In this document: positions 35,271-58,648 of the stretch, piece by piece | Numbering within the stretch: the first letter of the stretch is position 1 | Layout: every line of letters starts with the position of its first letter | Sequence record: MZ311865.1 | Length of the DNA: 64,000 nt | From: Escherichia phage vB_EcoM_LNA2 | Direction: 5' to 3' (one strand) | Made by a program: the position numbers and the translations under genes | The notes under the pieces: model-generated | The model's database searches: none | Told to the model about the DNA's origin: nothing | What the model saw: the letters and a program-made list of their open reading frames with translations, nothing else

Positions 35271-35819
35271 TTAACGAGCCCATTTGATAATTTCTGTAAT
35301 CAAATTATTACGTTCGCTTGCATTAAATCCTATAACTTTGTTAGCACCATCATGATTAAGTAATTGATACGTTTGGATTTCGTTATGAATTGCAAACTCT
35401 TCAAAATATGAAATGACTGTATTAAAACCAAATGAAGACAAAGTAATAAGGTCGTCTTCAAAACTTTCAGTCATTTCGTTACGTGTTAAAATAATTGTGA
35501 ACACATCATGGTTTTGGCAAAGACGAACATAGTCCTGTTCATAAACGTCAAGAACCGAGTCCGCATCTTGTCGAATACGTCCGTAAACCCAGTTACTAAT
35601 ATATCCACGGTCTAATAGATAAATCTTAGTAGGGTCTAAATAATTCAACATCGTTTCGAAACAGCCAACTTCATTTCGAGACTTAACATCGAAACGTCCA
35701 TCAACTGTTCGTTTAGGGAAATCAATCTTTACATATCTTTCACTAATTTCCATTATGTCATTAATGAAAGTTGTTTTACCAGCATTATCTGGGCCATCTA
35801 CTAAAATAATTTTAGCCAT
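35271..35819 (-). CDS. P-loop kinase (nucleotide/nucleoside kinase-like)
   Basis: 182 aa; Walker A VDGPDNAGKTT; LLDRGYIS resembles dNK-type motif. Confidence 0.6.
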   Translation of the reverse strand: MAKIILVDGPDNAGKTTFINDIMEISERYVKIDFPKRTVDGRFDVKSRNEVGCFETMLNYLDPTKIYLLDRGYISNWVYGRIRQDADSVLDVYEQDYVRLCQNHDVFTIILTRNEMTESFEDDLITLSSFGFNTVISYFEEFAIHNEIQTYQLLNHDGANKVIGFNASERNNLITEIIKWAR

Positions 35820-35820
35820 T

Positions 35821-36720
35821 TTATTCCTCGATTACGACATCTTCATATTTAGGTATATTATACGGTGAAGAAATTAAAGCGTTAAAGTAGATGAACTCAC
35901 CAAGACCTGGATGGAATACTTCTTCAGGATTTTCGAAATATTGAATTTTCGGACGTCCTTTAAGAATTTGATAGTACTCAGTTTTAGTTGGTTTAAAAAT
36001 TCGAATCAACGCTTCTTCAGGATACTTATTTCTGTCGAAGCTATTATTTGGATCGGTTATATAAAGCGGTTGACCTAATTGAATTGCGCATTCAACAACT
36101 TGTTCAAAACGATAGCATGGGTCACTAATTCGAAATGGATGAAAAATACCATCTAGATGAATAGGAGCCAAATCACCTACAAGACGCTGCATGATGGAAG
36201 GACGTATAACTTTCTGCGTTACGATAATCTTATTACCATCTGCACCAGCGTTAACCAGCACTTCTTTTTGACGTTCATTCAACACAGTAGTTTGAAGTGA
36301 ACGATTAACCGACAACATATCGGTTTTTAAGAATTCGTCAATATAAAAACGTGGTTTATTAGGGTCTGCAGTGATATTGAAATTGAATTCCGCATCAAAA
36401 GCGCCGTCATATCCAGTGATATCTGTGATTAGAAAATCACAGTCATAATAAGCAATTAATGAATCAACCACAAATTCATTTTCAGACCAGAAATATTTAC
36501 GAGTGTTATACGCGTTATCTTTATACCATAATGGAACAAACTTAAATTCTGGAAAAAGACGTTCGCATTCTTTAATATCAGATGCATTACGTGGATATGT
36601 AATCACATCACCCGGATTAGCACGGTGCAAATGAAGTTGGAAGTTGCCATCCTTAAGGATAGCATACTGTCCAGTTTCATAAGACCGCATACTCAAGATA
36701 GGTACGCGGAAAATAGCCAT
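35821..36720 (-). CDS. Hypothetical protein, 299 aa (occupies T4 beta-gt position)
   Basis: ORF track; no recognised motif; TAATG-coupled to TS-like gene. Confidence 0.5.
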   Translation of the reverse strand: MAIFRVPILSMRSYETGQYAILKDGNFQLHLHRANPGDVITYPRNASDIKECERLFPEFKFVPLWYKDNAYNTRKYFWSENEFVVDSLIAYYDCDFLITDITGYDGAFDAEFNFNITADPNKPRFYIDEFLKTDMLSVNRSLQTTVLNERQKEVLVNAGADGNKIIVTQKVIRPSIMQRLVGDLAPIHLDGIFHPFRISDPCYRFEQVVECAIQLGQPLYITDPNNSFDRNKYPEEALIRIFKPTKTEYYQILKGRPKIQYFENPEEVFHPGLGEFIYFNALISSPYNIPKYEDVVIEE

Positions 36721-37436
36721 TAGTCAAGGAATCCTTTAACATAATCAAAATCACGTTCAAACACATGGGCACTTACCATGGTATGAGTATAATCACCAAC
36801 TTCTACACCACATTCTTTAGCGATATAATGAAGTAATTTTCCTTGGAGATAAAAATCCAACTGCATAACAACAGCACAGTTCTGAGAACGCATATGACAG
36901 TGGGTATAAAGCTTACCATCACGAATATAATAAGTCACTGAGTCAGTACATGGATATTCAAGTGTTTCGTCCGAATCAAGCAAAGCCTGATCAGAACTTT
37001 CTAGAATTTGGAACACAACTCTTCGAGAGTTAGGCTTCTCTTTAAGTTCTTTTAGAAGAGCTGGTAATTGGGCCGCAATGCGAGGACCATAGAAAGTGTT
37101 GAAGTTCGCCGGCAAAACATCTGATTTTGGTTTAGAAATAAATTTAGCGACATTAGGATATGCCTTAAACGCTTCTTCTGCGTTGGTACCACCAGAAATC
37201 ATAAACTTCCAGAAGTCTTCGGCATATTCATAAGAGATGCGGTTAATACGTGGGTCGGTCATTTTGAATGATGATGGAGTGTCAACAACTACTGTCATAG
37301 ACCCAATTTCATTACAACGTCCAATACGAGAATCAGTTACGAATTCCGGGTTTTCTAAAATTTCACGATTGACAGCTTTAAATGCGGATTGAAAATCTGC
37401 GGCTTTAATATATTTCATTGTGTTATGTTTTCCCAT
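36720..37436 (-). CDS. Thymidylate-synthase-family pyrimidine hydroxymethylase-like enzyme (gene 42 position, divergent)
   Basis: 238 aa; NSRRVVFQ, YPCTDSVTYY and MRSQN resemble recalled T4 gp42 DSRRGIMIY, FMCTNTVQY, MRSND, but overall divergent. Confidence 0.65.
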   Translation of the reverse strand: MGKHNTMKYIKAADFQSAFKAVNREILENPEFVTDSRIGRCNEIGSMTVVVDTPSSFKMTDPRINRISYEYAEDFWKFMISGGTNAEEAFKAYPNVAKFISKPKSDVLPANFNTFYGPRIAAQLPALLKELKEKPNSRRVVFQILESSDQALLDSDETLEYPCTDSVTYYIRDGKLYTHCHMRSQNCAVVMQLDFYLQGKLLHYIAKECGVEVGDYTHTMVSAHVFERDFDYVKGFLD

Positions 37437-37714
37437 GTTTACCTCAATACAATTTATTATATACTCAATTCATAAAGCTTATTTGAATTTCTTAGCGATG
37501 TTGATATAACGTAAAGCTTCAGCATCGATATTTCCAAGAACACTATGAAGAAATGCATCAGCGTAGTATTACAGTTGAACAGGTTCTTTAATCACTTTAG
37601 CCGCTTTAGTTTCAAACAGGCCCATCAGGGCCTTTTTAAGAATTTGTTCGTTAGTGTTCAGTTTCGTAGTCAAAATCTCTTCATTAAGTTGGTGGTTAAA
37701 AGTTTTTCTAGAAA

Positions 37715-38875
37715 TCATTCCGGGTACCTCAAAGCGTCATCAGAGTTAGTTATATCAATAATAGATATAGAGTTTTCTGATAACCCATTTTTAGATAACT
37801 GACGTTTATAATATCTTTCACAATATGTACACGTTGACCCACAGATTTCATTAGCACAATCGAAATCTGGATGTCTGAACCACCTTTTTTCTAAAAAGCC
37901 ATCTAACAAAGAGGTTTCAATATTTACTGTATGTGAAAACTCAGTTTCGTTTTCAAGAGTGAAAATAGTCTCTAAAGGCTTCCACAGTTCTAACAAATTA
38001 CCTTCAAACTTTTCAGAAGCGTATGCTTCAAGAACTTTCAAAATGTAGTCTGTGCTACCTGTACGTCCTGAAACTTTGAATTGAGTGATACCAATATCAT
38101 TATAAAGTTTCAAATCTTGAGGACGAACAAAACGAGTTCTCAACCAGTTAAATGGGTCTGTATCACGAGCTTTAATACAGTGCTGCATAGGATATCCGTT
38201 TAAGGATTTAGCATCATCAGCTGTAACATCAGTACTATGGAAAATATAGCAAGAGTCACGATAGCTACAATGTGTTGTATACCCTTTACCAGCATTAGAA
38301 CAGAACTCATTTACAAGAACTTCAAATATTATATTGTTCTTATTACAAAACTCTGCTGCACGCTTCAGGAAAGAAACTGAACGGTTCTTATGAATTCCAC
38401 AGCAGACCTTTTTGATATTATATTGGTCGTGCAAGTATTTGATTTGAGTTACAGCATCGACATGTAGAATTGTTGAAACTTCAATCTCAATGTCTTTATT
38501 GACTTCACGAACAATTTCCATAACAACAGGGTTAGCGATAGTAATACGCCATACGCCTATTGACCAAAGATACTGAACATAATCCTGAATAGCTTTCTTC
38601 TTCCACTCAACTAGTTCTCTTTTTGAACCAGGATTTATCGTGTTGAGTGTATAGTTAAAGCAAATACCTAATTCGTTACAACGTTTAACGTAATCTTCTA
38701 ACATCTTTTTGTCAACGTCAGGAAGCCTAAAATCAGGTCTGGCTGCTACAAAAGCCATTTCTCTTGTAGAGCCGTATACTTCGTTTATCAAGCTATTAGG
38801 ATAAGTTTTATTGAGCTCTACGATTTTATCAAGAAGAGCTAAATCAAAATTCGTTCCGATTTTAAAAGTATTCAT
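37715..38875 (-). CDS. Hypothetical enzyme with C-terminal Cys cluster, 386 aa
   Basis: ORF track; DCANEICGSTCTYCE cluster; no confident family. Confidence 0.5.
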   Translation of the reverse strand: MNTFKIGTNFDLALLDKIVELNKTYPNSLINEVYGSTREMAFVAARPDFRLPDVDKKMLEDYVKRCNELGICFNYTLNTINPGSKRELVEWKKKAIQDYVQYLWSIGVWRITIANPVVMEIVREVNKDIEIEVSTILHVDAVTQIKYLHDQYNIKKVCCGIHKNRSVSFLKRAAEFCNKNNIIFEVLVNEFCSNAGKGYTTHCSYRDSCYIFHSTDVTADDAKSLNGYPMQHCIKARDTDPFNWLRTRFVRPQDLKLYNDIGITQFKVSGRTGSTDYILKVLEAYASEKFEGNLLELWKPLETIFTLENETEFSHTVNIETSLLDGFLEKRWFRHPDFDCANEICGSTCTYCERYYKRQLSKNGLSENSISIIDITNSDDALRYPE

Positions 38876-38933
38876 TTTTTTGCATCTCGCGTTAATTGAT
38901 GCGATGGTTTTTTTGCAGGTCTTACTTAAATTA

Positions 38934-39335
38934 TTATAGATTCGGTTTATACGATTTAAATGTTTCGAATTCGCCTTTATTCATAAGAGCTTTGAATTCG
39001 TCAGGACGCATAGCTTTGTCGTCGATAATCCAATCATATACTGGTTTATGTGTTAGCAAATTATGGTACTTCAAGCCAATGTTTGCCAAGTTCTGAATCA
39101 GACTTGGGAGAATGTCAATTGCTATACGACCAGGACCTACTGACTTCATACCGCGAGCAGTGTAAAGCGTTATGGTATGCCCTGCATCATACAGAGCATT
39201 AATGGCAGACACCATTTCGGTGTCTGGTTTGAAGTTCACGTAATCACGATTGTTATTCCATTCCGTGATGCAATCATCGACATCAAAACAAAGATTAAGC
39301 ATGTTTTCTACACGGTGCATTAGATTCGTTCCCAT
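38934..39335 (-). CDS. HAD-superfamily phosphatase (KdsC/GmhB-like small phosphatase)
   Basis: 133 aa; motif I FDVDDCIT, motif II LYTAR, later K and IIDD. Confidence 0.6.
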   Translation of the reverse strand: MGTNLMHRVENMLNLCFDVDDCITEWNNNRDYVNFKPDTEMVSAINALYDAGHTITLYTARGMKSVGPGRIAIDILPSLIQNLANIGLKYHNLLTHKPVYDWIIDDKAMRPDEFKALMNKGEFETFKSYKPNL

Positions 39336-41005
39336 TGATGAGTGATATCGCCACCGATTGGACGATAGGAAACACCAGTTTCTTTATCAGTTAGTACCCA
39401 TTTACCAGGATTTTTTGTAATCAGAGTAGCCGTTACAGGTTCTGCTACGTCATAACTAATAGAGCCGTCTTGAAGTACACGGCCCATATTACGTAATTGC
39501 TTAGTCAGAAGTTCCATACCTTTATAATATGCGGCTACCGCTTTAAGTGGATTATTCTTGAAATAACCACCTAATGCAATCCAGATAATTGCTACAGCCA
39601 AATGATGATACTCGTTAAACGAACTCATCTTTCCATATTTGTAAACTAGTGGATTGATGTTAATAGTCACATTACAAGTTGTTTCGTCAATAGTAAACTG
39701 TCCCCAGGTCGGATTAGCGTTGAATTCATCATAACCTGAAACAGCATAAAGCACTTTAGCTTCATCGTACAATTTTGGCCCGTAAATCTTGGTTTCACCA
39801 AAATATCCACGAGGGTCGATAAACTTGACTTCGCCGTTATCAGTAATCATAGTATTACTGAAGTTCGGGTCGCCGTGAATAACAGAGTACTGTCCCTGAG
39901 AACGGTTATGATAACGAATAAGGTGTTCTAAAGCTTGTTTCAGCATTGGCTTCAGACGTCCAATCTTAGTGTAGTTCACATGTGTGATTTTACCAAATGA
40001 ATCAATCAATGGTTGAATGCTTTCACAACGATCAATAACTTTCGTATAGAATTCTTTAGTGAAATCACGACGAACAGTTTCAGGACTTACAAAATAAGTG
40101 TCTGTGCTGAATTTCAGTGCATCTAAAATTGCACCAACAATTTGTGGACGAGCAAGACTTGATTTGGATTTAATATATTCAAATGCCGGCTTACCTTTAA
40201 TGCGTTCCATTTCAAAGTTATTTTCATTAACAGAAACTAACTGAGGGACTGAATCTGATTTCACTTTAAGATACCATGAAATCTCATCTTTCTGAAGAGC
40301 TCGACCCTGTTCGGTTAATGCGAATTTAGTTACAGTTTCTTCACCAATTTCAACTGCATTAAAACTACGATTAAGTTCACGAACTTCATGAGCTTTTTCA
40401 AGTTTAGGCATATCACCTAAATCAATTAGATTCATAAGCTCTGATTTATTGAATGTGCTGCCGTAAAGGAATTCTACGAAATCACGTCCTTTGCAGTATT
40501 CATGAATTTCCTCATCAGTAGAACCCATATAGAATTCCCAGTCTTTGAACTGATAAATTCCTACAACATTACCACCTGTTGAACCTACGTTAGTGATATT
40601 TTCACCGTCGAAATTATATCGACATTCGTCACCCTTAACATAGATTGCGTTAACATTCCAAGACCATGAACCAAAATCGGGAATAATATCACACCAGTTA
40701 ACAATTACGTTATGGCCGTCTAAATCTTTGTGTAATTTAGCAAGAGCATAAGCAGAACCATACGCTTCATCAACTGTACGAATAGTCACATTGAACTCTT
40801 CTTGCTCACAATAAGCTCGAACAGTTTCAGCAAATTTTGAATGAACTACTACAATAATTTCATCTGCGCCAAGGTCAGAATAAATTGTATACAAATTGCT
40901 CAGAATAGTGTCTTGTTTATAGTTAACAAGCACCTTAGGAATATGATGCGTTATTGGATACAAACGAGTTGCTAATCCAGCACCAAGAATAACAGCTTTT
41001 TTCAT
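39320..41005 (-). CDS. Bifunctional sugar-1-phosphate nucleotidyltransferase / APH-type sugar kinase
   Basis: 561 aa; N-term KAVILGAGLATRL (G-x-G-T-R nucleotidyltransferase signature); C-term VIHGDPNFSNTMI...KFIDP (APH/choline-kinase catalytic motif). Confidence 0.65.
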   Translation of the reverse strand: MKKAVILGAGLATRLYPITHHIPKVLVNYKQDTILSNLYTIYSDLGADEIIVVVHSKFAETVRAYCEQEEFNVTIRTVDEAYGSAYALAKLHKDLDGHNVIVNWCDIIPDFGSWSWNVNAIYVKGDECRYNFDGENITNVGSTGGNVVGIYQFKDWEFYMGSTDEEIHEYCKGRDFVEFLYGSTFNKSELMNLIDLGDMPKLEKAHEVRELNRSFNAVEIGEETVTKFALTEQGRALQKDEISWYLKVKSDSVPQLVSVNENNFEMERIKGKPAFEYIKSKSSLARPQIVGAILDALKFSTDTYFVSPETVRRDFTKEFYTKVIDRCESIQPLIDSFGKITHVNYTKIGRLKPMLKQALEHLIRYHNRSQGQYSVIHGDPNFSNTMITDNGEVKFIDPRGYFGETKIYGPKLYDEAKVLYAVSGYDEFNANPTWGQFTIDETTCNVTININPLVYKYGKMSSFNEYHHLAVAIIWIALGGYFKNNPLKAVAAYYKGMELLTKQLRNMGRVLQDGSISYDVAEPVTATLITKNPGKWVLTDKETGVSYRPIGGDITHQWERI

Positions 41006-41058: not shown

Positions 41059-41190
41059 TTCATACTTTGCTTGTAGTCCAATCATAATCCATCCAATTAC
41101 AAGTGTTGGAATCATTACTGGAGCCGTTAAGCTCCAGTAGATAGTCATGGCAAGCATCAATAGTAAAAGTCCTATTGTTATTGCTTTCAT
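41047..41190 (-). CDS. Small hydrophobic protein, 47 aa (not in ORF track)
   Basis: Hand translation MKAITIGLLLLMLAMTIYWSLTAPVMIPTLVIGWIMIGLQAKYECFN; ATGA overlap with SIS gene. Confidence 0.35.
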   Translation of the reverse strand: MKAITIGLLLLMLAMTIYWSLTAPVMIPTLVIGWIMIGLQAKYECFN

Positions 41191-41822
41191 TGTTCGCCTC
41201 GTAACATGGCACCTAGTGCACCGCCTGGATGGAACTTAAGGAAGTCATTAGAGGTAAATCCACGTTCAGACGAAAGGTTGATAGCAAACGTATCGATAAG
41301 CGCTAACAACAATGTAGTGGACATAGTCGGAGCCAGAGAATTCTCATCAACCTCTACCGCGATGCCTGTACAGAAAGAGTAATCAAAAAGGGCTTCATTT
41401 TCTTGTGGAATGTCTGGGTTACAATGCAACAGAATCTGTTTGACGTTCGGTCGAATCATTTTAAGATGCTTAGCCACGCCTATCATTTCTTCAGTTTTAC
41501 CAGAACGACTAATATGAATCAACACATCATTAGGCGCAATGAATCCTGCATCACCGTGAGAATAATGCCCAGTGTTCAAGTACATACTCGGGATACCGAG
41601 TGAAGCAAATGTCTCAGAAGCTTTAGTTGCAATATTAGCATTCTTACCAACACCTGTAATAATTACTCGGCTTTCATAATTACTAAGTCCCGGGCGTCGA
41701 AGAGTTTCTAGAATAGCATTATAACGAGCAGGGTTTTGACTAATTACTTTGGCCATAGCGGCCAAAGAAGAAGCTTGTTTTATGATTGCGTCAATAGCGA
41801 TAGTAATAGGAGTAGTTTTCAT
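41187..41822 (-). CDS. SIS-domain sugar-phosphate isomerase, KdsD/GutQ arabinose-5-phosphate isomerase-like (no CBS domains)
   Basis: 211 aa; GVGKN...TFASLGIPS...HGD.G...ISRSGKTEE...LAPTMSTT...FHPGGALG parallels E. coli KdsD SIS domain as I recall it. Confidence 0.65.
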   Translation of the reverse strand: MKTTPITIAIDAIIKQASSLAAMAKVISQNPARYNAILETLRRPGLSNYESRVIITGVGKNANIATKASETFASLGIPSMYLNTGHYSHGDAGFIAPNDVLIHISRSGKTEEMIGVAKHLKMIRPNVKQILLHCNPDIPQENEALFDYSFCTGIAVEVDENSLAPTMSTTLLLALIDTFAINLSSERGFTSNDFLKFHPGGALGAMLRGEQ

Positions 41823-52004: not shown

Positions 52005-52214
52005 TTATCTCATTAAATTAAAATAAAAACGTCCATCCTCTTCAATACAGAACTCATATTCAACTGGAGTCCCGTTTATCGAAAATGACACGTCATGTGG
52101 GTTCAAAGGGTCGATGTCAAAATTAATTTTAAATTCACGACCCAACAGTTTTACCAAATAAGGGATTGCTTCGTCAAAAGGTTCTTCTAAGTAGTTAGAG
52201 ATGTCAATTGTCAT
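52005..52214 (-). CDS. Hypothetical protein, ~69 aa
   Basis: ORF track 52005..52298 overlaps gp55; shortened to an internal ATG. Confidence 0.35.
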
Positions 52215-52761
52215 CCTCATATAAAAAATCCAAACTAGGCGAATCGCTAACAACTTCCTTCTTTTCAGCCCCAGGAGCTTTATAAGCGGATTCTTCATAA
52301 TGCGTCATTTTATCGTAGATGTCTTGAATAAACGTTTCATCTACCAACGCTACCATATCATCGTCATGACTGTCGTAGACATTATGAACGAAGTAACTAT
52401 ATTTCTTTGCAACTTCCTTACGTTCTTTTTTGATACGTTGGACAAAAGCATTAAAACAAGCTCGAGTTATGTATGCATGTGGGTTATTGTACTTAGTTTC
52501 GTCGAAATTATGAAGTCCCTTAATAGAGGCTTCAATCCCATCTGCAATCATCTCCTGCTTCCAAGACTGGGTATATCCTGAAAAGTTGAAACGTTTGGAC
52601 AGGCCTTCGGCGATAAGCATAATTGCTAAACCGATGGTATCATTCTGACGAATAATTTTGTTTGGGTCTTTATTATTTAAGAGCTCCTTTTTCCACTCGA
52701 TTATAGCGGCGAGAAGCTCTTTATTATTCACATAGTTATTTTTAGGTTTTTGTTCAGTCAT
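52204..52761 (-). CDS. 55: Late-transcription sigma factor gp55
   Basis: 185 aa; ...[45 protein letters not shown]... matches recalled T4 gp55. Confidence 0.9.
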
Positions 52762-52833
52762 AAGTACCTCTTAGCTCAATTCATAGGTCTATTATATCAT
52801 AATATTTAGAGACCTATCTTAAAGCACGAGATA

Positions 52834-53103
52834 CTATCGGAGCAAACAATAAGCCTGAAACACTTTTTCCATTAAACGTTTGAACTCATGGATATCGATA
52901 TAAAGCTCAGTAAGACCGGCATTATAAAGAAAATCTAAAAAGTTCTCATGTGTTTCGTTATAGTCGCCTTCGTTTAATTTAGATACATGAGTTTCCCAAA
53001 AACCAACACCTTTAACGAATGGAAAATACGTGACTTTCATATATTCGTCAACATAAAATTCGCCCAGCTTTTCTTCAGTTATACTGATTCGAGTTAATTT
53101 CAT
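52834..53103 (-). CDS. Hypothetical protein, 89 aa
   Basis: ORF track. Confidence 0.45.
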   Translation of the reverse strand: MKLTRISITEEKLGEFYVDEYMKVTYFPFVKGVGFWETHVSKLNEGDYNETHENFLDFLYNAGLTELYIDIHEFKRLMEKVFQAYCLLR

Positions 53104-53327
53104 TCTAGTTCCTTTGCTGCTTCAAGAGCATCATCCAACGAATCAAATTGGTCAACGAAATCGATATTCAACGCATCGTCAGCCGTAGCATATAGCCACC
53201 ATTGTTTGAATTCATATTCTAGGATAAATCCAAGCCCTTCAATCTGAGAAAGACCTAGGCTATTTGTACCAACTTCGTAACCAGCTAGACGCAGGTCATT
53301 AATCAAAGATTCTGTTAATACGCTCAT
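53100..53327 (-). CDS. Hypothetical acidic protein, 75 aa
   Basis: ORF track; ATGA coupling. Confidence 0.45.
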   Translation of the reverse strand: MSVLTESLINDLRLAGYEVGTNSLGLSQIEGLGFILEYEFKQWWLYATADDALNIDFVDQFDSLDDALEAAKELE

Positions 53328-53656
53328 TTTACCGCCTTAACAATTTTCAGGTCAACGAATTTTTTCTTACGTTGATTTTTCATACGACGGATAGTCTTTT
53401 CAGAGATTTCATGTTTCTGATAAGCTTTAGATTCAACACCAAATGCAGCAACATCAAATTCAGAAAGAATATATTGTACTAGAATTTCACGAATAGAATT
53501 ACGTCCAATTTTCTGGTCGTGTTTTTGCATGATTTCATAAAGACGGAATTCCCACGCGTCAAGAACTTGAGGAGTAACAATATTGCCGGATTCCAGAAGA
53601 GCAACAACTTTATCGAAAGCGAAAGAATTAACTACATTTTTGATTTTAGTAGACAT
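53324..53656 (-). CDS. Hypothetical protein, ~110 aa
   Basis: ORF track 53324..53695; ATG 53656 with GAGGA SD; the 53695 ATG lies in the promoter -10. Confidence 0.45.
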   Translation of the reverse strand: MSTKIKNVVNSFAFDKVVALLESGNIVTPQVLDAWEFRLYEIMQKHDQKIGRNSIREILVQYILSEFDVAAFGVESKAYQKHEISEKTIRRMKNQRKKKFVDLKIVKAVK

Positions 53657-53693
53657 ATTATTTTCCTCGGTTATTTTATTATCCAATGAGAGC

Positions 53694-53723
53694 ATTATAC
53701 TCTGCTCTCAAGAGTTTGTGCAT
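53694..53723 (-). promoter_or_regulatory. Early-like promoter (ATGCAC-18-TATAAT), repeat copy
   Basis: 34-bp core identical to 8953-8986. Confidence 0.45.
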
Positions 53724-53962
53724 TATTCCGTGATAAGATAATGTAAATAGTTTGCTTGACGAACACTGATATCAACACCCATATCAAAGATACCTTTATA
53801 GAACGGGTATTTGTTTTCAGTAGAATCTAGACTAAAAGCCTTTCCACCACAACTAACGGTAATAGCATCAGTTAAAGTGTCATATACAAACTTAATAGTT
53901 GAGCCATTCACTACGACTTCAAGACGTTTTTTCGATGTAATAACGTCTAATTCTTGTTCCAT
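53723..53962 (-). CDS. Hypothetical protein, 79 aa
   Basis: ORF track; GAGGAA SD. Confidence 0.45.
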   Translation of the reverse strand: MEQELDVITSKKRLEVVVNGSTIKFVYDTLTDAITVSCGGKAFSLDSTENKYPFYKGIFDMGVDISVRQANYLHYLITE

Positions 53963-53982
53963 GATATTTTCCTCATTTTAAG

Positions 53983-54016
53983 ACGATAGGAAGATAATAA
54001 CATGACTTCCTATCGT
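53983..54016 (-). repeat. 11-bp inverted repeat hairpin between small early genes
   Basis: ACGATAGGAAG ... CTTCCTATCGT with 12-nt AT-rich loop. Confidence 0.6.
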
Positions 54017-54025
54017 TGTATATTA

Positions 54026-54226
54026 TTATCCGAACTTTTTAGCGCCTTTCCAACCTTCGTACATAGCTGCGCAAGTCAATAGCACGGCATGTTGGCATTC
54101 TTTGTATTTGTAAATCCAGAACCAGCGTAAGAAGTCTTCATCCTCAACGCCGTTGAGTTTCATATTGGCAAAGAATTCGGCACGTTCTTCACGAAGCTTT
54201 TGCGATAACATAGATTCAGGATTCAT
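54026..54226 (-). CDS. Hypothetical protein, ~66 aa
   Basis: ORF track 54026..54238 (GTG); ATG 54226 ATGA-coupled. Confidence 0.4.
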   Translation of the reverse strand: MNPESMLSQKLREERAEFFANMKLNGVEDEDFLRWFWIYKYKECQHAVLLTCAAMYEGWKGAKKFG

Positions 54227-54357
54227 TTTGTGTTCCACGCCCCATTTTCATCGATGAACTTAATCCAGTCATTTACAGACCATTTAGTTGTATCACCCTT
54301 TGGATTAACATTTAAAGTATATAATCCCTGCTTAAAAAGCATTCGTTTGATATTCAT
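54223..54357 (-). CDS. Hypothetical protein, ~44 aa
   Basis: ORF track 54223..54450 overlaps the next ORF; ATG 54357 with GAGGAA SD. Confidence 0.3.
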   Translation of the reverse strand: MNIKRMLFKQGLYTLNVNPKGDTTKWSVNDWIKFIDENGAWNTK

Positions 54358-54364
54358 AATTTCC

Positions 54365-54658
54365 TCAACTGTAACGATAACATTCGTTAGCTTTACGTTT
54401 GGCTTCAGTATGAGAAGTATTATAATCATACTCTTCTTTACTGTAAACATCTTTTTTCAACTTACGAACTTCTTTGCGGAGTTGTCGATTCATTTCATTC
54501 TTGACTTCAGAATCAACGCCTTTCATACGTTTCCATTTATCTGAGCGGAAAATGTTTTCAACCATGTCTTTGTGGCTAACACCGTCAGGAGCTTTACGCT
54601 TACCAAAATAGTCGTAATCGCGAACTTTCAAATCTTTACGACGATATGTTTTACCCAT
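54365..54658 (-). CDS. Hypothetical highly basic protein, ~97 aa
   Basis: ORF track 54365..54685 (TTG); ATG 54658 with SD. Confidence 0.4.
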   Translation of the reverse strand: MGKTYRRKDLKVRDYDYFGKRKAPDGVSHKDMVENIFRSDKWKRMKGVDSEVKNEMNRQLRKEVRKLKKDVYSKEEYDYNTSHTEAKRKANECYRYS

Positions 54659-54665
54659 AAGTACC

Positions 54666-54914
54666 TCAGAGGTTGATTGATACAACGCGTTTGATAAAAT
54701 TCACTTCACTTACTGAAAGGTCTTTAAGACCGATTGATTCTAAACGCTGAGTAAGCGTCAACATCGGGATATAATCCCAATGAGTTTTAGTTGCTTGATA
54801 AGTACGAACTCCATTAGCAATTTCAACGTTCAAATCGGAAATGGTAATGAATATCGGACGCTCGTCATTAACTTTAAGGGTTAGAACAACTTTCTTTGAA
54901 TCTAAACTAATCAT
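54666..54914 (-). CDS. Hypothetical protein, 82 aa
   Basis: ORF track. Confidence 0.45.
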   Translation of the reverse strand: MISLDSKKVVLTLKVNDERPIFITISDLNVEIANGVRTYQATKTHWDYIPMLTLTQRLESIGLKDLSVSEVNFIKRVVSINL

Positions 54915-55093
54915 GACTTAATTTCCTTCGCAATTGAACAGAAGATACCACGGTCACAAAGCATTTCACCAATTTCTGGATATTTGATTGAACGGTACCA
55001 AACATCCAGGCTTGAAACTCTGGTTATCTGTATGGCATTACCATTGACAGAATAGTACTGGTCAACCTTAATTTCTTTATCTTCAATTGTCAT
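54911..55093 (-). CDS. Hypothetical protein, ~60 aa
   Basis: ORF track 54911..55255; ATG 55093 with GAGGA SD; upstream part is leader with promoter and terminator. Confidence 0.4.
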   Translation of the reverse strand: MTIEDKEIKVDQYYSVNGNAIQITRVSSLDVWYRSIKYPEIGEMLCDRGIFCSIAKEIKS

Positions 55094-55242
55094 TTTATTT
55101 TCCTCTATAGTAGATGGTTTAATCTTAACACATCTATTGAGGATGTAAACTGTTTTATGAAAATATTTTTTGATTTGAGAGGGGCACAAGGAGATAGTGA
55201 AGTGAAGATTCCAATGGATTATATTAGAAATGAGATAAAGAA

Positions 55243-55261
55243 GACCAGGCGGCACCTGGTC
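55243..55261 (-). terminator. Intrinsic terminator after nrdH-like gene
   Basis: GACCAGG-UGCCG-CCUGGUC then U-rich tract. Confidence 0.5.
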
Positions 55262-55568
55262 AATCTTCTATGATATCAGAGTCATATCCTAATGAAATCA
55301 AGGTCTTTTTAAACTCTGCAATATTCTTTTGTTTCTTATCATTTAAAAATATGACAGGATAACGAATATTAAGTGAAGTGAATCCTGCACGTTTAGCAAG
55401 AGATACGATTAAAGGACGGTCATATTCAATCTTACCATTATTAGTGAGGACTTTATAAAATGTATAAGGGGCATTGAGCTCCTTTAAAAGTTTTGTAACA
55501 GTATAACATCCTGGACAACGTCCTACTTCTTCAGGGATGCCATAAATTTCAATCTTGTTGTGTTCCAC
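55260..55568 (-). CDS. Glutaredoxin/NrdH-like redoxin
   Basis: 102 aa; CPGC redox motif near N-terminus; upstream of nrdG/nrdD; GTG start with AAGGA SD. Confidence 0.5.
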   Translation of the reverse strand: MEHNKIEIYGIPEEVGRCPGCYTVTKLLKELNAPYTFYKVLTNNGKIEYDRPLIVSLAKRAGFTSLNIRYPVIFLNDKKQKNIAEFKKTLISLGYDSDIIED

Positions 55569-55570
55569 AA

Positions 55571-55783
55571 TTATTCCTTACCAAAAACAGAATTCAGTTT
55601 ATTAGTAATTTTGTCCAAACGTTCATTGAATTCGCTGGAGGATAATCCCTTTTCCGGAGAAATTAAACTAATCACGAAAAATACAACAGTAAAAGGAATA
55701 AGAAAAATAGCTCCAACTGCCATAAACAAAAATAACGTTACAGTTGTAAGAAAATCAGCTAAACCTTTACGAAATTTATACAT
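55571..55783 (-). CDS. Small membrane protein, 70 aa
   Basis: ORF track; hydrophobic core. Confidence 0.45.
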   Translation of the reverse strand: MYKFRKGLADFLTTVTLFLFMAVGAIFLIPFTVVFFVISLISPEKGLSSSEFNERLDKITNKLNSVFGKE

Positions 55784-55893
55784 ATTTACCCTTAATTAAC
55801 TAAGCATTGATAATCATTAAACTATATTGCGAATAAAATTCTGGACCAAAACGAAAAATCATATCATTTATAGTATCCATAATGTAATTCAAT

Positions 55894-56364
55894 TTAATCA
55901 TGTTTCCACACCCCATCGGTATTTGACCAAAGTCGCTGATTATCTGATCCTCGCCACAGCTTTTTAGTCGGAAGATTTTTCTCATACTTCCCATCAATAA
56001 TAACATCAACATATTTAAGCATTTCTAGTTGTTTAATATCTTCAAACTTATATCCTGTCCACAACCAAATGCTTTTATTGGGATAAAGATTTTTTACTGT
56101 TTGAGCAATGCGATGAATAACATCTCGGTTATCAGGATAGAGAGGGTCTCCTCCGGTTATAGTTAATCCTTCTATATAATCATTATTCAAACATTCAATC
56201 AATTGTTCTAGTGTCTCTCCAGTGAATGGAATACCATTTCTAGCATTCCATGTTGATTTATTATAACACCCTTCACATTTATGCAAACAACCTGTAACGA
56301 AAAGAACGACCCTGCAACCAGGGCCATTCACAAAATCGCAAGGATAAAATCTATCATAATTCAT
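55894..56364 (-). CDS. nrdG: Anaerobic ribonucleotide reductase activase NrdG (radical SAM)
   Basis: 156 aa; Cys-rich N-terminal CDFVNGPGC...C..C..C region. Confidence 0.9.
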   Translation of the reverse strand: MNYDRFYPCDFVNGPGCRVVLFVTGCLHKCEGCYNKSTWNARNGIPFTGETLEQLIECLNNDYIEGLTITGGDPLYPDNRDVIHRIAQTVKNLYPNKSIWLWTGYKFEDIKQLEMLKYVDVIIDGKYEKNLPTKKLWRGSDNQRLWSNTDGVWKHD

Positions 56365-58178
56365 TGGTGTTTAACCCTATGCATGATTTCTTTATTTTTA
56401 CCGAGATTAAATCCGCGTTCGTTCGGATTTCCCAAATAACCGCACGTTCTTCTTATTGTGTTCATCTTTTTAGGATCAGTTTCTCCACAAATAGAACAAA
56501 CAAATCCGTTTTCAGTAGGAGTCATTTCATGGGTACTTCCACACGTAAAACATTTATCTACTGGCATATTAACACCAAAATAATCTAAATGTTGTGCAGC
56601 ATAATCCCACACGGCCTCAAGACCTTTTAAGTTATTTTTCATATCAGGAAGTTCAACATAAGAAATGTGACCGCCGGTCGCTATGAAATGATATGGTGCT
56701 TCGCGAGAAATCTTTTCAAACGGAGTGATATTTTCTTCTACTGAAACGTGGAAACTGTTAGTATACCAGCCTTTATCGGTAACATCTTTTACACTTCCAT
56801 ATTTTTCGGTATCAAGTTTACAGAAGCGATAACAAAGGTTTTCAGCAGGAGTAGAATATAAACTAAAAGCAAATCCAGTTCTTTCAGACCACTGTTTAAG
56901 ATGAGCATTCATTTTAGTTAAAATTTCTTGCCCAATATCACGACCAACAAGAATATTCAATTCGTGAATACCAATGTATCCTAAGGACACTGAACTTCTA
57001 CCGTTTTTAAATAACTCAATTATATCGTCATCAGGTTTAAGACGAACCCCGAATGCACCTTCTTGGTAAAGAATAGGAGCAACAGTTGCTTTAACACCCT
57101 TTAAAGAACTAATTCTACACATCAAGGCTTCAAAACACAGATCCATTCGTTCATTAAATAGCTCAACAAATTTCTGTTCATTGAATTGTGTTCCAATATA
57201 AGAATCTAACGCAATACGAGGAAGATTCAGTGTTACAACACCAAGATTATTACGTCCATCAAGAATTTCATTTCCAGTCGAATCTTTCCATACACTCAAG
57301 AAACTACGACAACCCATTGGAGAAACAGGAATAGATGAACCAGTGATAGCTTTATTGTTCTTAACTGAAATAATATCAGGATACATTCTTTTGCTTGCAC
57401 ACTCTAGGGCAAGCTGCTTAATATCATAGTTCGGGTCGTCTTTATAAAGATTGACACCCTCTTCAATGAACATAACAAGTTTAGGGAAAATAGGAGTTAT
57501 TCCATCACGACCAAGGCCTTTAATGCGGTTTTTAAGAATTGCTTTCTGAATAATTCGTTCAGTCCAGTCAGTTCCAGTACCAAATGTAATTGTTACAAAA
57601 GGCGTTTGACCGTTTGAGCTAAAAAGAGTATTTACTTCATACTCATAAGCTTGAAATGCATCGTATACGTCTTTTTCTGTTTTAGATTGGGCATAATTCA
57701 ACGCATCAGCGATTTGCCATTTTTCTGCATCCTCAATATGTTTTGCATAGGTGCGTTTAACATAAGGAGAAAGTACTTTATCTACATTAGCAAAAGTCGT
57801 TCCGCCGTACTGATGTGAAGCAACCTGTGCGGTAATTTGTGCCATAATTGCAGTAGCAACACCAATCGATTTAGGCGTTTCAATTTGAGCATTACCTAGC
57901 TTAAACCCGTTTTCAAGCATTCCTTTTAAATCTACTAAACAGCAATTAGTAAATGGAAGAGCAGGGGAATAATCAATATCATGGAAATGGATAATTCCGC
58001 TTTCATGTGCTTTCATAATAAAAGACGGGACCATATTTTTGGCAATGTGCTTAGACACAATACCAGCCATAAGGTCCCGTTGAGTTGGAAAAACACGAGA
58101 ATCTTTATTAGCATTCTCGTTCAAAAGATCTTTATTAGTTTTATGAATTAATCCTTCAATTTCTTTTTCAATTTTCAT
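56361..58178 (-). CDS. nrdD: Anaerobic ribonucleotide reductase NrdD (glycyl radical enzyme), uninterrupted
   Basis: 605 aa; C-terminal glycyl radical motif RRTCGYLG and Zn-ribbon CxxC...CxxC. Confidence 0.9.
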   Translation of the reverse strand: MKIEKEIEGLIHKTNKDLLNENANKDSRVFPTQRDLMAGIVSKHIAKNMVPSFIMKAHESGIIHFHDIDYSPALPFTNCCLVDLKGMLENGFKLGNAQIETPKSIGVATAIMAQITAQVASHQYGGTTFANVDKVLSPYVKRTYAKHIEDAEKWQIADALNYAQSKTEKDVYDAFQAYEYEVNTLFSSNGQTPFVTITFGTGTDWTERIIQKAILKNRIKGLGRDGITPIFPKLVMFIEEGVNLYKDDPNYDIKQLALECASKRMYPDIISVKNNKAITGSSIPVSPMGCRSFLSVWKDSTGNEILDGRNNLGVVTLNLPRIALDSYIGTQFNEQKFVELFNERMDLCFEALMCRISSLKGVKATVAPILYQEGAFGVRLKPDDDIIELFKNGRSSVSLGYIGIHELNILVGRDIGQEILTKMNAHLKQWSERTGFAFSLYSTPAENLCYRFCKLDTEKYGSVKDVTDKGWYTNSFHVSVEENITPFEKISREAPYHFIATGGHISYVELPDMKNNLKGLEAVWDYAAQHLDYFGVNMPVDKCFTCGSTHEMTPTENGFVCSICGETDPKKMNTIRRTCGYLGNPNERGFNLGKNKEIMHRVKHQ

Positions 58179-58648
58179 TTTAAACTCTTTCTAAGCTGCT
58201 TTTTGAATGAAGCTATTAATTGTGTTTTGGTATCAGATTCATTATATTCAAATCCTCTTTGAAGCATCTCAGCCATCATTTCCTCTTTACCTAGTCTTGA
58301 GAACTCTTTAGTTTTGTCTGGAACAAAATTAGGATGGATATTATTATCAGAATAATCTTGTTTCAAATAAGCAAGAAGAGCTTCAAGCCATTCGAGGTAG
58401 TCGACATCACGTCCTTTAAGACCGGAGCGGTTGAACTTATGCTTCATTTGGCCTTCTGCTGCGTTGCACAGATTACAGAGTAATCCACGAACTCTACCGG
58501 CTTTTGGCCCGTTTAATTCGTGGTCGTGGTCAAGATGGTTACCTTGAACATCAGGGTCTAATTCACGGTGACAAATAGGACACTTACCGTTCTGTGCATA
58601 ATAAAATTTTTGTTTTTCTTCTTTATATTTTGCGCCTGATAATAACAT
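58175..58648 (-). CDS. 49: Endonuclease VII (Holliday junction resolvase) gp49
   Basis: 157 aa; CPICHRELDP...HLDHDHELNGPKAGRVRGLLCNLCN; close to recalled T4 EndoVII; late promoter upstream. Confidence 0.9.
   Translation of the reverse strand: MLLSGAKYKEEKQKFYYAQNGKCPICHRELDPDVQGNHLDHDHELNGPKAGRVRGLLCNLCNAAEGQMKHKFNRSGLKGRDVDYLEWLEALLAYLKQDYSDNNIHPNFVPDKTKEFSRLGKEEMMAEMLQRGFEYNESDTKTQLIASFKKQLRKSLK

Follow-up and report, generated by a model that had tools for sequence, protein, structure and literature searches.

The stretch analysed here (hereafter the window) is 64,000 nucleotides of Escherichia phage vB_EcoM_LNA2 (sequence record MZ311865.1), and it carries on its minus strand an open reading frame (ORF) of 386 codons, running from ATG to stop, which is the counterpart of gp50 of phage RB69 (RB69p050, annotated there as 'peptidase'). 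The region is 98.4% identical to RB69 and ~150 other Mosigvirus genomes, and RB69 gene names are used below. Broadly speaking, gp50 is almost certainly a metalloenzyme of the U32 family, and the evidence assembled below makes it a candidate for an O2-independent hydroxylase in the modification of phage DNA. Its features are as follows:

37715..38875, minus strand: gp50 homolog, a divergent Peptidase-U32 protein of 386 aa, candidate O2-independent pyrimidine C5 hydroxylase
38018..38596, minus strand: Pfam Peptidase_U32 match, residues 94-286, TIM-barrel-like core
38177..38302, minus strand: predicted metal site 1, C192-x10-C203-x5-C209-x23-C233 (alignment and conservation; translation checked)
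37820..37858, minus strand: predicted metal site 2, C340-x4-C345-x3-C349-x2-C352 (clade-specific; conservation)

A sequence-only reading of this DNA had placed a 386-aa protein at 37715-38875, with no strand named, co-oriented and tightly packed with its neighbors, and this description holds: 58 nt separate gp50 from the HAD-phosphatase gene upstream, and at its other end an ATGA is shared between its stop codon and the start of the small ORF that follows. Position 38875 is the likely start because in the window the closest ATG upstream (38883-38885) lies in another frame; RB69 gp50 as annotated is 389 aa long, three codons beyond the window ORF, and the interval upstream of the start (38876-38933) offers just a weak GAG, ~12 nt away.

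No family had seemed assignable by eye, and this is where profile searches gave a different answer. gp50 matches Pfam PF01136 (Peptidase_U32) at 42.2 bits (cutoff 22.4) over residues 94-286, and PHROG 5757 over its full length (E = 7e-267); it belongs to an enzyme family, and not to a structural or regulatory one. By fold comparison gp50 is a TIM-barrel-like protein resembling Mk0906 (PDB 5d88) from Methanopyrus kandleri, and no other solved U32 structure came up. Mk0906 is 14% identical to gp50 and consists of the barrel alone (247 aa), without the C-terminal Cys knuckle of gp50; a sequence search of solved structures returned nothing significant, 5d88 emerging by fold comparison alone. The K-[IV]-x-G-R strand motif is present (gp50 FKVSGR aligns with VKIEGR, LKIEGR and FKIEGR), and K267 and R271 are conserved in 129/129 sequences of the family alignment.

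The characterized subfamilies were each rejected as a home for gp50. The RlhA subfamily combines U32 with DUF3656, whereas the Pfam scan of gp50 gives PF01136 alone (386 aa vs. 653 aa), and the UbiU equivalog (NF047963), the sole NCBIfam match, scores 18.5 bits, far under its cutoff of 440. TrhP has a YegQ-type architecture with a C-terminal extension domain; gp50 has no second Pfam domain, is ~19% identical, and does not align with the C-terminal region of TrhP. Radical SAM membership was discarded despite a CX3CX2C spacing, there being no PF04055 match and the motif being C-terminal and preceded by a fourth Cys, while NrdG, the true radical-SAM protein of the window, was readily detected. 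A role in defence or anti-defence was likewise set aside, PADLOC giving no match.

The family around gp50 is of modest size: a word-index search gave 263 hits, and an exhaustive HMMER search gave, out of 1.84 billion, 111 representative clusters with the threshold set to E <= 1e-30 and 1,186 with E <= 1e-3. Most members measure 340-390 aa. Compared with its counterparts in ten T4-like genera, the window protein shows 79-89% identity, which makes gp50 the most conserved protein of its cluster; the corresponding figures are 71-83% for gp48, 44-72% for the glycosyltransferase, 37-73% for the kinases and 70-84% for the polymerase.

Two sets of four cysteines are conserved among these relatives. 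The C-x4-C-x3-C-x2-C cluster pointed out in the sequence-only reading is indeed there, as the peptide DCANEICGSTCTYCE (C340, C345, C349 and C352, encoded at 37820-37858). Given a Cys content of 3.4%, the chance of four Cys within 13 residues in any arrangement is ~0.1 (an estimate for a single sequence), and it is because the motif is conserved across relatives that it is not a chance pattern: none of the four residues varies among 115 clade members, the most distant at 46% identity, and 120-122 of the 129 family members, which reach to 27% identity, retain them. The last three show the CX3CX(aromatic)C spacing, which is typical of cluster-binding loops, and neither UbiU nor TrhP has a counterpart to this site in the alignment.

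For site 1, gp50 and its relatives were aligned with the four paralogs of E. coli K-12. gp50 C203 aligns with C169 of UbiU and RlhA, C209 with C176 of both, and C233 with UbiU C193 and RlhA C192; the UbiU cysteines of this motif are proven [4Fe-4S] ligands (PMC6747719), and those of RlhA are essential (PMC5727448). C203 and C233 are present in 129/129 family members and C192, which sits in a clade-specific insertion ('NEFC'), in 128/129, while the position of C209 holds Cys in 81/129 and His in 47/129. C158 and C177 are not conserved in the 129-member alignment. Judging from the alignment, site 1 is a variant of the U32 CX6CX15CX3/4C [4Fe-4S] motif, and both predicted sites would hold metal, as Fe-S or Zn. 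With two conserved four-ligand sites, one of which has three positions that align with [4Fe-4S] ligands, the earlier suggestion of a metal-dependent enzyme is very probably right, gp50 belonging to the DNA-modification island, although the sugar step it had in mind is not supported.

The U32 members with a defined role, RlhA, TrhP and UbiU/UbiV, are all O2-independent, require prephenate and depend on a four-Cys [4Fe-4S] cluster, and for UbiU/V isotope labelling has proven prephenate to be the oxygen donor (PMC10990095). RlhA (YdcP), the 23S rRNA 5-hydroxycytidine-2501 synthase of E. coli, shares its Pfam domain with gp50, needs prephenate and Fe-S biogenesis (PMC5727448), and hydroxylates cytosine at C5, the same base chemistry as we propose for gp50. 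Its essential C169 and C176 are those that align with gp50 C203 and C209, but RlhA is a 653-aa protein with DUF3656, acting on pre-50S RNA, its Cys spacing differs (x6/x15 vs. x5/x23 in gp50, at ~21% identity), and its further essential C-terminal cysteines (PMC5727448) are not homologous to those of gp50. TrhP (YegQ) acts on tRNA and lacks the additional C-terminal four-Cys site of gp50, which in turn lacks the fourth canonical Cys. UbiU/UbiV are small-molecule U32 enzymes with proven [4Fe-4S] clusters and are the anaerobic counterparts of flavin/O2 monooxygenases; they form a heterodimer, have the lipid-binding protein UbiT as partner and take a prenylated phenol as substrate, and a paralogous partner of this kind was not detectable for gp50 within the window.

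The neighborhood of gp50 is a DNA-modification cluster. From high to low coordinates, the minus-strand order is DNA polymerase gp43, SIS isomerase gp55, gp52:53, gp51 and gp50, followed by ORF049c, the thymidylate synthase (TS) homolog gp48, glycosyltransferase gp46:47, kinase gp45 and UvsX. The features of interest are:

41187..41822, minus strand: gp55 homolog, SIS-domain arabinose-5-phosphate isomerase
39320..41005, minus strand: gp52:53 homolog, bifunctional, arabinose-5-phosphate kinase plus UDP-arabinose pyrophosphorylase, AfhE-like (Pfam NTP_transferase and weak kinase matches; function from PMC13326640)
38934..39335, minus strand: gp51 homolog, HAD phosphatase (AfhF-like), arabinofuranose 1,5-bisphosphate to arabinofuranose 1-phosphate
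37479..37718, minus strand: homolog of RB69 ORF049c (79 aa), with an in-frame TAA at codon 50
37569-37718, minus strand: intact ORF049c remnant, 49 aa, its start overlapping the gp50 stop
36720..37436, minus strand: gp48 homolog, TS-fold flavin/O2-dependent 5-hydroxy-dCMP synthase (Pfam PF00303; function from PMC13326640)
35821..36720, minus strand: gp46:47 homolog, DNA arabinosyltransferase 1, intact at 299 aa (split in the RB69 reference record)
35271..35819, minus strand: gp45 homolog, thymidylate-kinase-like nucleotide kinase
55894-56364, minus strand: nrdG, anaerobic ribonucleotide reductase activase (Pfam Fer4_12, Radical_SAM)
56361-58178, minus strand: nrdD, anaerobic ribonucleotide reductase (Pfam NRDD, 570 bits; Gly_radical)

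In the window, one unbroken ORF encodes the 299-aa glycosyltransferase and another the 561-aa kinase/pyrophosphorylase, while the RB69 reference record divides both (ORF046/047 and ORF052/053); these splits are sequencing errors according to a published statement, with which the window ORFs agree.

The chemistry of this cluster was recently worked out. RB69 DNA contains mono- and di-arabinosylated 5-hydroxycytosine (5hoC) and not hydroxymethylcytosine (Lee et al., NAR 2026, PMC13326640). According to the same study, gp48 is a 5-hydroxy-dCMP synthase that binds FMN loosely, requires reduced flavin and takes up 18O from O2; together with a dNMP kinase it suffices to place 5-hydroxydeoxycytidine in E. 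coli DNA, and 5hoC replaces C fully via the nucleotide pool. The sugar branch, from ribulose 5-phosphate to UDP-arabinofuranose, consists of gp55, gp52:53 and gp51, and transfer is by gp46:47 and gp3, so that every step of the aerobic pathway belongs to genes other than gp50 (PMC13326640). gp50 itself is listed there in a table alone, as 'sugar or heterocycle reductase' with the structural hit 5d88 and no experiment, and the Discussion mentions RNA hydroxylation pathways and does not connect them to gp50. Acinetobacter phage DLP3 has the same kind of base and a cluster without a gp50 homolog (PMC13326640). Among other records, that of HY126 names the gp50 homolog 'hypothetical protein' and that of phage ChristianSchoenbein 'UDP-arabinose biosynthesis'. 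The gene and its U32 annotation are therefore already known and not a new object; new against the literature searched are the functional assignment, the two-site Cys architecture, the linkage to chorismate mutase (CM) and DAHP synthase, and the spread in phages of anaerobes.

This linkage is seen in Enterobacter phage Entb_45, where the gene overlapping the U32 stop encodes a 79-aa AroQ-type CM (Pfam CM_2, 40.9 bits vs. 27). By tblastn it is found in 56 phage records, 55 of them T4-like with the match inside the U32/TS-homolog cluster, from phages of Klebsiella, Serratia, Yersinia, Enterobacter, Edwardsiella, Erwinia, Proteus, Pectobacterium, Escherichia (EcS1), Shewanella, Providencia, Morganella and Kosakonia; four more CMs, from different genera, also score above the Pfam cutoff. 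R8, R25, K36, E49, S71 and Q75 are invariant in these, in the spacing of the active-site residues of E. coli CM (1ECM). Even with the altered gene order of Shewanella phage Thanatos-2 (TS homolog, glycosyltransferase, kinase, U32, CM, uvsX), U32 and CM still adjoin with overlapping stop and start codons. Jumbo-phage contigs carry a small CM directly 3' of U32, and other contigs a fused DAHP synthase-CM gene beside it. Overall, a CM lies near U32 in 14 of 45 distant loci (Pfam, 39-72 bits) and 18 of 22 U32-bearing T4-like loci, compared with 0/2 T4-like loci without U32. CM or its DAHP synthase fusion is thus tied to the U32 gene in three independent architectures, and we hold with good confidence that gp50 uses prephenate.

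The fusions (PF00793 + PF01817) adjoin U32 on viral and metagenome-assembled genome (MAG) contigs (L numbers denote the loci of our collection: L044 4411-5433, L047 4321-5376, L046 9-971, L057 7079-8197 and L068 4922-5956); in viruses, such a fusion is an auxiliary metabolic gene driving carbon into the shikimate pathway. One T4-like lineage (L019/L078; IMG/VR 2974546015, 168.5 kb) has a U32 protein 89% identical to gp50 with the TS homolog directly after it and neither CM nor ORF049c, its gp45-like kinase being relocated upstream of U32.

The slot downstream of U32 is otherwise often occupied by the ORF049c family (162 phage records), and Yersinia phages and Serratia phage 92A1 have both it and CM. 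ORF049c was considered as a cryptic CM and rejected (no Pfam or NCBIfam match; hhalign probability 0.3%). ORF049c-like proteins of 65-79 aa (e.g., L001 5481-5720, L014 3697-3894, L015 2519-2743) share an EYYxDAFxHSxxG motif and always lie directly downstream of the U32 gene, and neither Pfam, NCBIfam nor PADLOC gives a match for them; such a protein could be a partner or regulator of gp50. Codon 50 is GAA in RB69 and TAA in the window, and matches are truncated or in two pieces also in HY126 (annotated 40 aa), PNJ-6, phi25-307, RPN187, AV118 and HX01, so ORF049c seems to decay often among Mosigviruses.

Beyond the T4-like phages, 45 loci with a U32 protein 44-58% identical to gp50 were collected from metagenomes, IMG/VR and species genomes, their genes called, and their neighbors clustered and identified by Pfam and hidden Markov models (HMMs). 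Five architectures recur. The first has a glycosyltransferase, SIS isomerase, APH-type kinase, optional DAHP synthase-CM fusion, KdsC-like HAD protein and U32; the second a primase, SSB-like protein, thymidylate kinase, a glycosyltransferase overlapping U32, and DnaE polymerase. The third, on 150-290 kb contigs, has a small membrane protein, U32, a small CM or DAHP synthase-CM, glycosyltransferase, kinase and HAD protein. The fourth consists of DnaE polymerase, dCMP deaminase and U32 (one case on a 466-kb contig), and the fifth of a ~414-443-aa protein, a ~270-aa protein and U32, the first of these with SAM-methyltransferase domains in L005, the one example scanned; Bacillota examples of this last architecture have NT5C, dNK and nucleoside deoxyribosyltransferase genes nearby.

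Of the relatives at 44-55% identity, some have a gp46:47-like glycosyltransferase, gp52:53-like kinase, SIS isomerase and HAD phosphatase nearby, and others dCMP deaminase, thymidylate kinase, dNK, NT5C and DNA polymerase; some, adjoining dCMP deaminase, thymidylate kinase, dNK or NT5C, have no sugar genes. A TS-family gene accompanies all T4-like loci (24/24 at ±6 kb, 15/15 at ±10 kb), compared with 1 of 31 distant viral loci at ±10 kb, where the gene encodes a ThyA of the classical kind (Pfam PF00303 at 244 bits, the TS HMM built here at 280 bits). Hidden TS homologs or CMs were not found among the unannotated recurrent neighbors, all hhalign probabilities being <2% (clusters c2, c5, c9, c10, c12, c15, c16, c19, c20, c22 and c24); c2 is a KdsC-like HAD phosphatase by motif, and c16 resembles an acidic-tailed SSB. 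Three independent contexts thus tie the U32 clade to a glycosyltransferase with an RB69-like pentose-activation set, to deoxynucleotide metabolism and to prephenate-making enzymes, and in the distant contexts it occupies the place of the O2-dependent synthase of T4-like phages.

Several of these loci deserve separate mention. In the jumbo-phage architecture U32 is always preceded, ~70-360 bp upstream, by the gene of a small protein of 82 aa that has a hydrophobic helix (MEIVGFILVGILIGACLISLISLWIY...) at its N-terminus (L050, L052, L054, L055, L057-L059, L069 and L070). In L004 (the 466-kb JGI contig) and L007/L008, U32 lies directly downstream of a dCMP deaminase gene, which it overlaps in L004, with a DnaE-type polymerase, UDG and thymidylate kinase alongside, in L004 also a radical-SAM/SPASM gene, and no glycosyltransferase nearby; this arrangement could be a 5-hydroxy-dUMP pathway in a megaphage-like element. 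The trio of the fifth architecture, seen in Bacillota, Tannerella, Phocaeicola faecalis, BRC1 and Woesearchaeota genomes or MAGs (L005/L065, L071, L072, L073 and L074), recalls TrhP with TrmR (5-hydroxyuridine to 5-methoxyuridine) and may point to 5-methoxy-pyrimidines.

The distribution of the clade also bears on oxygen. It is found in 221 phage records, all with Enterobacterales or Shewanella as hosts, while the gp48-type synthase is found in 373; most enterobacterial phage records with a gp48 homolog also have U32, compared with 0/57 gp48-bearing records from Acinetobacter and 0/20 from Rhizobium. In Acinetobacter phage Lazarus the genes for isomerase, kinase/pyrophosphorylase, phosphatase and TS homolog follow one another and U32 is missing, and the E. 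coli Dhakaviruses carry the same sugar cassette, again without U32. Among cellular genomes, 11 of 185,579 species genomes carry the clade, mostly from obligate anaerobes or anoxic-habitat lineages (a Phocaeicola faecalis isolate, Tannerella, two Romboutsia, Oscillospiraceae, Erysipelotrichales, Gastranaerophilaceae and Woesearchaeota), and these have the same cassettes.

With nrdG and nrdD, which lie between gp55 and the endonuclease VII gene (region 52204-58648), the phage of the window is equipped for anoxic DNA synthesis. In Dhakavirus CLB_P2 (L075 8899-13194) the flanking genes are 81-83% identical, with small ORFs and no nrdD/nrdG between them, and no NrdD or NrdG homolog was found in its first 71 kb (1-71 kb checked). 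NrdD occurs in fewer than 41 Acinetobacter phage records (an upper bound), against 57 with gp48. These contrasts agree with an anaerobic hydroxylase.

We think it rather probable that gp50 hydroxylates a pyrimidine (deoxy)nucleotide or DNA base for modification, and we lean, somewhat less firmly, towards an anaerobic prephenate-dependent dCMP C5-hydroxylase, the anoxic counterpart of gp48. gp50 would hydroxylate C5 of a cytosine deoxynucleotide, most likely dCMP to 5-hydroxy-dCMP, with the hydroxyl oxygen coming from prephenate, which would leave as phenylpyruvate and CO2. Two electrons would leave the pyrimidine via a [4Fe-4S] cluster at site 1 (C192, C203, C209, C233) and probably also pass through the second metal center (C340/C345/C349/C352) to an acceptor. 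The 5-hydroxy-dCMP so formed would join the gp48 route of dNMP kinase, polymerase and arabinosyltransferases. The analysis itself establishes the family, the fold, the conservation of the two four-ligand sites, the phyletic pattern and the gene linkage to CM, to glycosyltransferase and sugar genes and to dNMP metabolism; from there we infer metal content, prephenate use, the substrate and the oxygen-related division of labor. The U32 family does O2-independent pyrimidine C5 hydroxylation with prephenate, the aerobic pathway has no unassigned step, and gp50 is dispensable for the modification in whole lineages yet the most constrained protein of the cluster where present; this is most simply read as gp50 supplying 5-hydroxy-dCMP in the absence of O2.

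In RB69-like phages, gp50 would then be to flavin/O2-dependent gp48 what the anaerobic enzymes of the host are to their aerobic counterparts in the dual pathways TrhO/TrhP and UbiIHF/UbiUV. TrhO and TrhP, an O2-dependent enzyme and a prephenate-dependent, O2-independent U32 enzyme, make the same 5-hydroxypyrimidine at tRNA U34, and gp48 (O2/flavin) with gp50 (U32) in one phage cluster parallels this logic, although TrhO is of the rhodanese type whereas gp48 is a TS-fold flavoenzyme. gp48, like its homologs DLP3 gp80 and that of HY126, shares the proposed product and pathway with gp50 and is encoded two genes away, but is unrelated in fold and cofactor and requires O2 (18O2 labelling, PMC13326640); its type occurs without U32 in Acinetobacter and Rhizobium phages, and in distant phages is not near U32. 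In many uncultivated phages of anaerobes, the gp50 type may be the sole hydroxylase.

Several points weigh against this reading. Direct hydroxylase activity has not been reconstituted in vitro even for RlhA, TrhP and UbiU/V (PMC10990095). Of the canonical CX6CX15CX3/4C motif gp50 retains just a part: the spacing is x5/x23 and the fourth Cys is missing, for which C192 likely substitutes, as judged by conservation and not geometry. RB69-like phages (Mosigviruses, including the window) have no CM, the unrelated 79-aa ORF049c filling the slot, and would therefore depend on host PheA/TyrA. E. coli Dhakaviruses (CLB_P2) have gp48 without U32; the gene is therefore not required by every enteric phage with the pathway. 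The phyletic contrasts rest on few independent lineages, the Acinetobacter phages being one clade, and the absence of TS in distant phages covers ±10 kb alone. Finally, the sole published label of gp50, 'sugar or heterocycle reductase' (PMC13326640), differs from hydroxylase, and our literature search, which found no link between U32, phages and 5hoC, did not take in He et al. (2026) and Mahler et al. (2025), which might report a different or the same function.

The best-surviving alternative, which we consider unlikely, keeps the chemistry and moves the substrate: gp50 would act on cytosine in polymeric DNA after replication, or on dCTP/dCDP. RlhA and TrhP do act on polymeric RNA and the arabinosyltransferases on DNA, but gp50 is a U32 core with a short Cys knuckle and no DUF3656 or other nucleic-acid-binding domain, its relatives adjoin mononucleotide enzymes (dCMP deaminase, thymidylate kinase, dNK, NT5C), and the published replacement of C by 5hoC goes via the nucleotide pool (PMC13326640).

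Quite unlikely, in turn, is a reductase, epimerase or dehydratase in the sugar branch of NDP-arabinose synthesis, close to the epimerase, dehydratase or transferase that the sequence-only reading had offered. The route from ribulose 5-phosphate to UDP-arabinofuranose needs the isomerase, kinase/pyrophosphorylase and phosphatase alone (PMC13326640), and Acinetobacter phages and Dhakaviruses keep the sugar genes without U32. The position of gp50 between sugar-activation and base-modification genes, the labels in Table 1 of PMC13326640 and in the ChristianSchoenbein record, and the co-occurrence of SIS, kinase, HAD and glycosyltransferase genes in many distant loci all speak for it; against these stand the relatives without sugar genes nearby, a linked CM with no role in pentose chemistry, and a family none of whose members is known to act on sugars, its recognized chemistry being the hydroxylation of quinone rings and, at C5, of pyrimidines.

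We find it decidedly unlikely that gp50 is an RNA hydroxylase like TrhP or RlhA, acting on tRNA U34 or rRNA C2501 and tuning translation during infection. T4-like phages encode tRNAs, tRNA genes are seen in CLB_P2, and all characterized nucleic-acid U32 enzymes act on RNA; yet the host already has TrhP and RlhA, gp50 has none of the accessory domains of RlhA and a UbiU match far below threshold in NCBIfam, and its genes always lie within DNA-modification, dNMP or replication modules. As for an Fe-S redox helper of gp48, one that reduces or delivers flavin or protects the enzyme, we give it very little credit. In its favor are the two putative redox centers of gp50, the nearness of the two genes in T4-like phages, and the loose FMN binding of gp48 and its need for reduced flavin (PMC13326640); against it, gp48 and kinase alone suffice in E. 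coli (PMC13326640), U32 stands without any TS-family gene inside ±10 kb at 30 of 31 distant viral loci, and the linkage to CM would go unexplained. A true collagenase-like peptidase, as in GenBank annotations, is hardly credible. What speaks for it is how the family is named, together with collagenolytic activity reported for PrtC and HP0169 (as cited in PMC5727448); however, U32 'peptidases' have no known catalytic mechanism (PMC5727448), the context is nucleotide and DNA modification throughout, and the Cys sites and CM linkage point to redox chemistry. The 'peptidase' annotation in many of the 221 phage records is probably wrong.

It is tempting to go further, and tentatively, at rather less than even confidence, we suggest that the gp50 clade is an unrecognized class of viral prephenate-dependent deoxynucleotide hydroxylases. 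These would make 5-hydroxycytosine without O2 in RB69-like phages. In many uncultivated phages of strict anaerobes (jumbo phages and (pro)phage-like regions in Bacteroidales, Clostridia and Gastranaerophilales genomes) no other enzyme would install the hydroxyl handle for glycosylated DNA pyrimidines or, with the linked methyltransferases, possibly methoxylated ones, the phage CM and DAHP synthase-CM genes feeding the reaction.

If the proposed function is true, the phage could modify its DNA in the anoxic gut, which would fill a gap, as the sole known 5-hydroxy-dCMP synthase needs O2, yet these gut coliphages carry an anaerobic ribonucleotide reductase. U32 prephenate-dependent hydroxylation, so far a matter of RNA, quinones and cells, would then include DNA precursors and viruses, and the presence of CM and DAHP synthase genes in phages would be explained. 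The U32 field is still without an in vitro assay (PMC10990095), for which the small, soluble and conserved gp50 is attractive, and with a soluble mononucleotide as its proposed substrate it could be the protein through which U32 hydroxylase chemistry is first reconstituted in vitro. DNA modifications based on 5-hydroxypyrimidines would then be common in phages of anaerobes, with a bearing on restriction evasion, phage therapy and the sequencing of gut viromes.

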